A stretch of DNA of 64,000 bases from Podarcis cretensis (taxonomy: Eukaryota), in NCBI GenBank assembly GCA_951804945.1, contig OX638149.1:118420001-118484000 (forward strand). The letters are read 5' to 3'. Every line of letters begins with the position of its first letter. Within the stretch, counting starts at the first letter, position 1. Positions 57,272 to 60,173 of the stretch are shown here, piece after piece. Both the position numbers and the translations under genes were made by a program. Under the pieces are notes generated by a model. The model was not told where the DNA came from and made no database searches. It saw only the letters and a list, made by a program, of their open reading frames with translations.

Positions 57272-57550
<279 letters not shown>

Positions 57551-58242
57551 TTAAAATAAAAAACCATTTATTTATTTTTAATTTTTACCATTACAGTACC
57601 TTAACTTAATAGCCGACAACTCTCTTTGGAGACAATGCAACACAAGAGCTGGTTTGCAGCTATTTCAGTGAAGATTTCTTATTTGGTTTACTCTAACTCC
57701 TCAAGTGCATATGGTTCGAAAGGGAAAGGGCACACTTGCGCTCTCAAGCAAGGAAACAAGCAAGCGCACACAGGTTCCTAAGTTGCAACTTCGACATATC
57801 TTCCTTGCTTAATTTGCATGTGGCTGGCGATGGGTGACACGGGATACTCGGCGCCCCCCGCGGCTTGAGGGCTCTGGGGCAAGTTTGCAGCAGCCAACAA
57901 TAGTAAAACGATCACGGCCAGCCTCGGAGAGGCCCGTCTTCATTAAGGCCAGAAGTCGTCCCCGTCCCCCGCCCTCCCTCATTATCCTCAACTCATTTCC
58001 TCTCCGGCTTTCAGTCCCTCGGATTACTTTCCAGCGGATCTGATTTTATTTTAAAGTTGAAGGCTGCAAGAAGCCCGCGAGGGACTTTCTGAGAGAGTAA
58101 CGTAAAGGGTGAGGGGCGGCTTTACTTCCGAGAAAATACGCCTCGGATCAGGCGGCAGGGCTGAGATCCTCACCCAGTCTGCTCAGAAATAAATGGCGAG
58201 TATTTTAGTGGAACTCGTTCCGATGCTTTTTCTGGAAGTTAA

Positions 58243-58291: not shown

Positions 58292-59009
58292 AATGCAAGC
58301 CTAGGGGACCTTCCTGGATTTGGGTTTTCGGTTTGGGGTGTTTGGGGGAAGGAAATGCTTTCACCCCGACATATTGCCGTGTGGCTTTTGTAAGGGCAGT
58401 GTCTACATAATGACAATGATTGCACTAATAGTACAATCTTACCCAGAAGTAAATCGCATTGAGCTCAATGGGTCTGCTATTCTCCCTGGAAAGTGGGTAG
58501 GAGAATTGCAGACCAAGTCCCATAGATTTCATAGGACCCTGGGGAGGGTGTACAAATAAAAGCCGGCCGTCGAACAGGCTTACTGGGAAGCTAATGCCCA
58601 CTGAGTTCAACAGAACTCTCTACAGCCTAAGACTAAGTTACTGGGTCGGAAGTTCTTTTGAAAGTCAAGGCGATTACAGGCTAGGCGTGCCGGAGACCCC
58701 TGCAGCCCAGGAGCAAAGACGTGAGAACATGGAGAGCGCAGACCCTTAAGGGATCCGCTCCACGGCTTTCTGTGGGGCTTCCTTGAGGGTCTCTGGGAGC
58801 TGCAAAAGAGAGCAGGCCGTTCTCTGGCTCCTGGTAGGTCTAGCGCGTAGCTAACCAGCTGGAGGAACTTCCCCCTCCTCTCCTCCTTCCCCTCCCCTCC
58901 CTGTGGTTTTAGGTGGGCAGCTACTTCTCCCAGATGTCAGCTTCCTGTCCGGTTGACCTTCTCCTCCTCCTGCTGCTGCTGCTGCGATCACCACCTGGCC
59001 GTGCCGTAC

Positions 59010-59742
59010 CTGGGAAGGAGGACTTCCAAAAGTGGGAGCCCTGGGCCTGGTCTTTGGCGCAGTACACCTGGCCGTTCCACCCGTTGGCCAAAGTCCACGA
59101 CTGGTAGCCCTCCATGGAGATGTACGTCTCGTGCCTGGGCTCGCCGCCCGCCGCCGAGCCGAAGGTGGAGACCACGTCCAGGTAGCCGGCGGGCACGTGC
59201 TGGTAAGGGCCGGCGGCGGCGGCTGCAGCGGCGTAGCCCTGATAGAAAGAGACCTCCTTGGCTCGCGAGGAGACGTCGCTGCCCGACGGGACGCTGGTGC
59301 TGGCCAGGCCGGCCACGTCCATGTACTTCTCCACGGGGAAGGCGGCGTGCGGGGAGGCTTTGAGCGCGGCGTTCTGCTGCAGGCAGCTGTAGTAGCCGTT
59401 GCCGAAGGGGTGGTAGCCCGGGTGGTAGCCCAGCGCGGCGGCCGCGGCAGCCGCGGCCGTGGCCGTCGGGGGCCCGCCGCTGGAGCAGTCTTTGGAAGGG
59501 GCCGCCTCGGACGACGACGACGACGAGCGCGCCCCGGCCGACGAGCCCGAGCGCTCGTAGGGGAAGCCCGAGGAGGAGGCGGGACCCGCGGCTCGACCCG
59601 ACGGCGGCGGCGCCGCTCCGAAGACCGGCGGCGATAGGAAATTGCGGCACTGCCCCCGGCCGCTGCTGCTCCCGCCGCTCCCGCCGCCGCCGGCGTCTGC
59701 CCGCAGCGCCTCCATCTCCCAGCCGCTGCCTGCGCGGCTCAT
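59010..59742 (-). CDS. HOXD13: Hoxd13 exon 1
   Basis: [16 protein letters not shown]...GQCRNFLS...FGNGYYSC...FPVEKYMD...[11 protein letters not shown]...[23 protein letters not shown]...[11 protein letters not shown] at 59742 (second in-frame ATG at 59715), donor G|GTACGG at 59010/59009. Spliced CDS 984 nt (327 aa). Confidence 0.94.
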
Positions 59743-59879
59743 GCTGCCTGCGCCAAAGAGCCTCGCTGAAGGCGGGCGCGCCGCCGATGCTGCTGCTGCT
59801 GCTGCTGCTCCTTCTCCTCTTCCTGGCCTCCCTCCTCCTCGCCTCGGCCCAGCGGCGGCGGAGGCCCCCAGCAGCTCAT
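59739..59879 (-). other. Hoxd13 upstream ORF (46 codons) with stop overlapping the main ATG
   Basis: gcgcgccATG at 59879 encodes [46 protein letters not shown]. The TGA at 59741-59739 shares ATGA with the start at 59742. Confidence 0.6.
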
Positions 59880-59967
59880 GGCGCGCCAAGCCACCGGGGC
59901 CGGGGCGACTGGTGCCTAGGACGGAGCGCTGGACGGGGCGGCCTCGCTCGCCCCCAGCTCGGGATGG

Positions 59968-60067
59968 TTTATAAAAACTAAGGCCACGCTGGGAGGGGGG
60001 ACGCGGCGCCTGGCTTCGCAGGGAGGGCCAGCAGGGAGCCCCCATTGGCTCCTCACGCCCACGTGAT
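59968..60067 (-). promoter_or_regulatory. Hoxd13 promoter: TATA, CTCF-like site, CCAAT, GC box, E-box
   Basis: TATAAA (minus, 59973-59968), CCAGCAGGGAGCCC (plus, 60028-60041), CCATTGG 60042-60048 and CGCCCACGTG 60056-60065. Confidence 0.6.

Positions 60068-60113: not shown

Positions 60114-60173
<60 letters not shown>
60114..60173. repeat. (GA)~30 tract upstream of the Hoxd13 promoter
   Basis: Read directly from the sequence. Confidence 0.95.

Follow-up and report, generated by a model that had tools for sequence, protein, structure and literature searches.

An upstream reading frame that ends on the Hoxd13 start codon in lizards, a likely member of the inhibitory uORFs of Hox leaders

The leader of Hoxd13 in the lizard Podarcis cretensis carries a 46-codon upstream open reading frame (uORF), whose TGA stop overlaps the first codon of HOXD13 in the four letters ATGA. 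Judging from the sequences compared here, we take it to be a real, transcribed uORF that is conserved among lizards, and likely a new member of the class of inhibitory uORFs found in Hox leaders. On balance we favour a reading in which the uORF brakes HOXD13 synthesis and is bypassed by leaky scanning.

Anatomy of the Hoxd13 leader

The window (the whole stretch of 64,000 nucleotides analysed here) contains Hoxd13, d12, d11, d10, d9 and d8 of the HoxD cluster, all on the minus strand, and its uORF region is 96% identical to HOXD13 of Podarcis raffonei, which marks the DNA as that of a lacertid lizard. The features of the Hoxd13 locus are as follows:

57272..57521, minus: Hoxd13 coding exon 2 (homeobox)
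59010..59742, minus: Hoxd13 coding exon 1 (splice joint 59009/57521)
59713..59715, minus: Met10 (gagATGg), a second in-frame start and the most widely common Met of HOXD13 models
59739..59742, minus: ATGA, the HOXD13 Met1 overlapped by the uORF stop
59739..59879, minus: uORF, 46 codons plus TGA, off-frame to HOXD13, start gccATGa
59790..59807, minus: (CAG)6 run within the uORF, a triplet-repeat tract where leader length likely varies
59877..59889, minus: GC palindrome overlapping the upstream ATG (uATG), with TTGGCGC at 59889, GGCGCGCC at 59887 and CGCCAT at 59883
59968..59973, minus: TATAAA, with a transcription start predicted ~30 nt downstream, at ~59945
60043..60065, minus: E-box CACGTG at 60065 and CCAAT at 60048, with an ATG at 60045 inside the CCAAT

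A long CT dinucleotide repeat (60115-60173) lies directly upstream of the E-box and CCAAT of this promoter. Within exon 1, the RMAHGVG segment that other lizards carry (~59380, minus strand) is absent here and from Podarcis, Rhineura and Salvator models; its loss removes an internal in-frame Met and looks like a deletion shared within that lizard group.

The uORF runs from an ATG at 59879-59877 through 46 codons to a TGA at 59741-59739, laid over the HOXD13 ATG at 59742-59740, just as a preliminary description of this DNA had claimed, without naming the strand; all of it is on the minus strand. That description is also right about the surroundings: uATG and Met1 are 137 nt apart (2 mod 3), the TATAAA at 59973-59968 is upstream of the uATG, a (CAG)6 run is present, and Met10 lies at 59715, 27 nt past Met1. 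The uATG is the only ATG between TATAAA and Met1; the (CAG)6 run provides six CAG codons, read as Gln6 in the uORF and as poly-Ala in the main frame; and Met10 has the best context of the three starts (gagATGg, vs gccATGa for the uATG and agcATGa for Met1). The good context attributed to gccATGa was a generous assessment, since the purine at -3 is present but +4 is an A. In Ivanov 2022 a uAUG counts as suboptimal if it lacks a purine at -3, a G at +4, or both (PMC8892498), and that of Hoxd13 falls under this definition.

A stop overlap of this kind arises easily. Dinucleotide-preserving shuffles of the leader produced a uORF with the same overlap at rates from 16.5% (2000 shuffles of 200 nt) to 20.9% (1000 shuffles of 150 nt), because stops are rare in this stop-poor leader of ~75% GC, and because an ATG followed by an AGY serine always gives TGA in that frame. 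Taken as a single case, the overlap is not beyond chance and is weak evidence alone. Folding of the leader is weaker than that of its shuffles (z +2.05; 197 of 200 shuffles fold as well), so the leader should be scanned; a stable hairpin was rejected on the same figures. The ATGA overlap keeps stop and start within the about 20 nt expected of TURBS-type reinitiation. An 18S-complementary motif in a structured upstream element, also expected there, was not found: folding is weak, and TGGGA, which we take to be the letters of that motif, is absent upstream of the uORF stop, with its sole copy at 59721, past the stop.

Transcription and promoter

The leader had been described as probably transcribed, and two studies of a relative, organism F, bear this out with spliced contigs (both of the two RNA-type contig runs examined for it). 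The contigs join 59009 to 57521 across a GT-AG intron and span the uATG, extending 5' to 59955 (depth 81) and 60043 (depth 15). The record's RNA label is itself guesswork, yet the splice joint establishes that the contigs derive from RNA. Since they include 59879, the AUG of the uORF lies within an mRNA leader, as do those of Ivanov 2022. Contigs cannot map a transcription start. The deeper one stops directly downstream of the TATA; since the other reaches a point 70 nt upstream of the TATA, some longer transcripts may exist. A raw RNA run (X23) gave six reads, all less than 90% alike, and yields no start site. In the Hoxd13 intron, run X15 has low-depth contigs at 57992-58237 and 58569-58951 (depth 3-4 vs 81 for the spliced contig), which may be pre-mRNA, DNA or an intronic transcript.

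The ATG at 60045, inside the CCAAT box and in frame with HOXD13, is used by lacertid models of 421-430 aa. It is likely the cause of these over-long Podarcis and Lacerta HOXD13 models, which would then start in the promoter.

Conservation in close relatives

Eight of 24 listed runs of related organisms were compared, among which organisms B, D, E, G and F cover both the uATG and the ATGA. In all five no change is listed at either element. Single contigs over both elements show net length changes of -3, -6, -6 and 0 in B, D, G and F respectively (leader plus exon 1); those of organism E break at the CAG repeat, and organism H (run X19) is without coverage of the uATG and Met1. The read tables skip the repeat stretch 59775-59826 and do not list indels inside repeats individually, and for organism G they list 13 of 15 differences. 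The leader's length changes fall in triplet repeats, which hold the frame without selection. As the five relatives are close to the reference (9-18 differences per kb) and triplet repeats slip in threes, retention of the frame among them is expected even in the absence of selection.

The peptide has changed in a neutral-looking manner. Seven of the eight distinct substitutions in the uORF alter its peptide, where 76% is the neutral expectation; in exon 1 the proportion of amino-acid-changing substitutions is 5 of 24 (Fisher p 0.0016). Read in the main frame, four of the eight leave the residue unchanged. The uORF peptide is therefore not selected. Its length varies from 42 to 48 codons and it has no match in the ESM Atlas, so the purifying selection that marks a conserved-peptide uORF is not seen here, and the (CAG)6 run was rejected as a functional poly-Gln because the peptide is unselected. 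The earlier proposal that frame rather than peptide is selected thus stands in part: the peptide is unselected and length varies at 2 mod 3, but triplet slippage also keeps the frame. From these comparisons we infer that the start codon has been kept, together with an unproductive frame, and that the peptide has not.

Comparison across vertebrates

Beyond the lacertids, the evidence comes only from gene models whose main frame happens to run on through the leader, and hence from back-translated protein rather than DNA: cgcCATGag appears in them as Arg-His-Glu, whose His could also be CAC. This signature is found 42, 43, 42 and 47 codons before Met1 in four of four lacertid models, and 48 codons before it in Varanus komodoensis; if His is CAT, the uATG-Met1 distances are 125-143 nt (143 in Varanus), all 2 mod 3. 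VALVFINHP, from the TATA region, is in the main frame in the Varanus model and in the uORF frame here, and the TATA-to-uATG segment measures 96 nt in Varanus vs 86 here. A frame-changing indel would therefore have been fixed upstream of the uATG and not between uATG and Met1, in a comparison of a single species for which the chance expectation is one in three and CAC is possible. On these models the uORF may be conserved beyond lacertids. The 2 mod 3 spacing predicted across species is found in lacertids and probably in Varanus, but not in the python (Liasis) model, where 42 codons upstream are read and show no off-frame ATG signature, with Leu in place of Met1 and, farther upstream, an in-frame Met. 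The other snake models examined start at Met10 or downstream, with the exception of Naja (in-frame Met 11 codons before Met10), and a joint loss of Met1 and the uORF is possible in snakes. Arg-His-Ala lies 44 nt before the Met1 equivalent in four galliform-type ORFs (CAC also possible). A fox model opens with MVSCA before jumping to exon 1; it gives no frame, and its start would fit an upstream ATG in mammals. The human leader may have a uORF of another length that ends in the same ATGA overlap.

The HOXD13 start appears to have moved across vertebrates. Of 178 proteins that carry the HOXD13 exon-1 signature, surveyed by annotated rather than measured starts, 37 have Met at Met1 without an upstream MCKA (an extra start 4 codons upstream of Met1 in birds, turtles and frogs), 20 have Met with MCKA (birds, turtles and one caecilian), 20 have Leu with MCKA (frogs), 39 start at Met10, three show other states and 59 have no match to the Met10 pattern. 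Models start with MTA in sharks, as is typical of group 13, with MSR in lizards, an alligator and mammals, and at Met10 in snakes and salamanders. On these sequences frogs cannot have this exact AUGA design, and Met10 is the position common to the models. A search for longer HOXD13 proteins returned five matches, two of them bird models with N-termini unrelated to the leader, and the mammalian HOXD13 models examined contained no leader read-through. Vertebrate HOXD13 DNA was not found in metagenome contigs (300 pattern matches, none confirmed, and none at all in a second search) nor in viral contigs (no matches).

Paralogues and other Hox genes

The other group-13 genes of this genome suggest a pattern. 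In Hoxa13 a uATG 14 nt before Met1 opens a 5-codon uORF, and in Hoxc13 one 5 nt before Met1 opens a two-codon uORF (Met-Ile-stop), both ending in an ATGA overlap; the same is seen in Hoxc8 (11 nt, 4 codons) and Hoxa7 (74 nt, 25 codons). Hoxb13 was rejected as a fourth group-13 case, since its uATG at 29 nt faces a start in ATGG, with no stop at the overlap; this off-frame uATG may be a frame-shifted remnant of the ancestral MTTS start kept in fish Hoxb13. We scanned 39 Hox genes over 150 nt upstream of the start, regardless of transcription start, with Hoxd1 left out because its start was not placed, and with start codons chosen from the N-termini expected of each gene. Among the 21 genes with an ATGA start, an overlap-ending uORF is present in 3/3 of group 13 vs 2/18 of the others (Fisher p 0.0075), in a post hoc test on paralogues that share ancestry; the two others are Hoxa7 and Hoxc8, where shuffles predict 2.85. 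The HoxC cluster of this genome also has an intact-looking Hoxc3 gene.

The uATGs of Hoxa13 and Hoxc13 are near a TATA-like word and may lie outside the mRNA or at its very 5' end. Read-through ORFs of teleost type (Hoxb13, Hoxa13) and bird type (Hoxc13), their clades judged by likeness and their codons ambiguous, would fit ATGs spaced 14 and 5 nt from the start. A uORF stopping on AUGA could be an ancestral group-13 design, rebuilt at Hoxd13 after the tetrapod start shift and lost together with Met1 in snakes, a speculative scenario that we hold to be rather improbable. The Hoxc13 uORF is recorded as mammals only in Ivanov 2022 (PMC8892498), and that of the lizard, if it is the same one, may be older than this record.

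Translation data and catalogues

In mouse E11.5 mesoderm, Hoxd13 has a log2 translation efficiency (TE) of -1.32 (adjusted p 2.4e-4), the eighth lowest among the 28 Hox rows listed of 39 and outside the threefold TE-low class; all seven HoxD rows listed are negative, and Hoxa13 (+1.06) and Hoxc13 (+0.97) are both high (PMC5316868). The Hoxd13 value fits a brake and equally a cluster effect, and is circumstantial only. Values of about +1 for mouse Hoxa13 and Hoxc13, although their lizard orthologues share the overlap, argue against a group-wide brake in mouse.

The catalogues searched are silent on Hoxd13. HOXD13 is missing from the rows of the GENCODE Ribo-seq ORF table (PMC10032668) and from the Ji 2015 files (PMC4739776), both of limited tissue coverage, and a HOXC8 uORF row likewise did not appear. 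Ivanov 2022 surveyed 39 mouse Hox leaders for suboptimal-context uAUGs present in at least 90% of placentals; it reports conserved inhibitory uORFs in 13 genes (Hoxa1, a6, a9, a11, b9, c4, c8, c9, c10, c13, d1, d10 and d11), among which neither Hoxd13 nor Hoxa13 is named, and its Dataset S3 has no HOXD13 row (PMC8892498). Hoxd11 and Hoxd10 are recorded there with tetrapod-conserved uORFs (PMC8892498); in the window, off-frame uATGs overlap the starts of Hoxd11 (36221, minus) and Hoxd10 (24460 and 24511, minus). Literature searches, judged mostly by title, turned up no account of a uORF in Hoxd13 or of a group-13 AUGA overlap, with subscription literature mostly outside their range.

A proposed brake and its alternatives

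In the reading that we favour, scanning ribosomes would reach gccAUGa first. Those that start there would cross the leader and end on AUGA, already past the Met1 start point, and after 46 codons reinitiation at Met10, 27 nt on, is predicted to be poor. According to a review of reinitiation, the restart codon after short uORFs is always downstream of the stop, gaps of 39-140 nt are preferred, and leaky scanning is how ribosomes get to a main ORF that is overlapped (PMC10275272); longer uORFs allow less reinitiation, according to Ivanov 2022 (PMC8892498). From these rules, the missing TURBS motif and the scannable leader, it follows that ribosomes starting at the uAUG would be lost to HOXD13. 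The protein would come from those leaking past the uAUG to Met1 (agcAUGa) or Met10 (gagAUGg), and its output would hence depend on start-codon stringency (eIF1/eIF5), like that of other Hox uORF mRNAs (PMC8892498). Because ~730 nt separate the uORF stop from the only exon junction, which lies downstream, a degree of decay would also be expected for mRNA on which the uORF is translated. The isoform choice ascribed to the uORF in the preliminary description is unlikely, because 46 codons and a 27-nt gap make a poor reinitiation substrate and Met10 can be reached by leaky scanning.

This would likely be a new case of a known mechanism rather than a new mechanism. Like the uORFs of Ivanov 2022, that of Hoxd13 is AUG-started, in a short Hox leader and in suboptimal context (no G at +4), with repression and a response to stringency predicted; it differs in having 46 codons vs 7-21 in the three tested there, in ending on Met1 and in being absent from the list (PMC8892498). 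The TIE elements of Hoxa3 and Hoxa11 also block cap-dependent Hox translation through uORFs, but the Hoxd13 leader is without their start-stop element or stable stem-loop (PMC8172242); long Hox leaders are themselves disputed (PMC9456764). In the TURBS reinitiation of caliciviruses and influenza B (AUGA or UAAUG), the upstream stop overlaps the downstream start at AUGA, as here (PMC10275272), whereas Hoxd13 has a short cellular uORF with no TURBS-like motif upstream of its stop. At Hoxd13 the overlap is more likely to block the main ORF than to feed it.

Other forces could have kept the same letters. If a GC palindrome resembling E2F and YY1 sites were what is preserved at the DNA level, the ATG and the overlap would be by-products with little translational effect, an account that we find unlikely and yet worth weighing. 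TTGGCGC, the palindrome itself and CGCCAT all overlap the uATG, and a second copy, TTTGGCGC, is found at 59757; in the Hoxb13 leader the word gcgcgccat recurs downstream of a TATA-like element, followed by C and so with no ATG; and Varanus keeps Arg-His-Glu while the flanks diverged. The E2F and YY1 sites are however putative, an ATG with a purine at -3 should draw in ribosomes if the leader is scanned and folds weakly, no matter what preserves its letters, and neither the Varanus frame nor the paralogue pattern is explained. We think it quite improbable that the uATG is near-neutral and simply tolerated, in a GC-rich, stop-poor leader where the first stop is the TGA made by an ATG and an AGY serine. 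The overlap in 17-21% of shuffles, the few stops at ~75% GC, the absence of the uORF from published catalogues and its apparent absence from the python model agree with this idea; its apparent retention from lacertids to Varanus despite a frame shift directly upstream, and the 3/3 group-13 genes vs 2/18 others, do not.

Two further readings assign the leader a productive role, and we give them little credit. Ribosomes ending the uORF might restart at Met1 or Met10, feeding HOXD13 or setting the ratio of long to short isoform, which we deem very improbable. Three paralogues do share the exact stop/start overlap, Met10 has the best context, and caliciviral AUGA overlaps support reinitiation, a viral coupling that needs an upstream TURBS element (PMC10275272). 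No TGGGA precedes the uORF stop, the reinitiation rules on position, gap and uORF length given above run against such a restart, and the MCKA start of birds, turtles and frogs, 4 codons upstream, and the frog Leu at Met1 do not suit it. Highly implausible, in our judgement, is that the leader itself is coding, with HOXD13 starting at the in-frame ATG 60045 (or at TTG 59889 or CTG 59874) and the uORF reduced to an internal off-frame ATG. The main frame is open from 60045 here and in four lacertid models, one spliced contig reaches 60043, and half of the eight leader substitutions are silent in that frame; but ATG 60045 sits within a CCAAT box upstream of the TATA and the deeper contig ends at 59955, the extension aligns with that of Varanus only in its last few residues, with the Varanus TATA region in the other frame, and squamate HOXD13 models mostly begin at MSR. 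The brake by leaky scanning is the reading that we retain.

Significance

HOXD13 dose shapes digits and tail, and studies of HOXD13 control are mostly transcriptional. If the present reading is true, it adds Hoxd13, and perhaps the whole of group 13, to the Hox mRNAs controlled by uORFs. Such a brake, in a leader whose length depends on triplet repeats, would be a site of HOXD13 control not yet examined, and if the human uORF is real, leader variants could bear on unexplained limb malformations. Should the group-13 overlaps prove to be of one ancestral design, their uORFs would act as one shared translational throttle on genes with roles in ending the body axis and in digit patterning. In lizards and snakes, if the brake is real, one-base indels or loss of the uATG could alter the level of HOXD13 in evolution.
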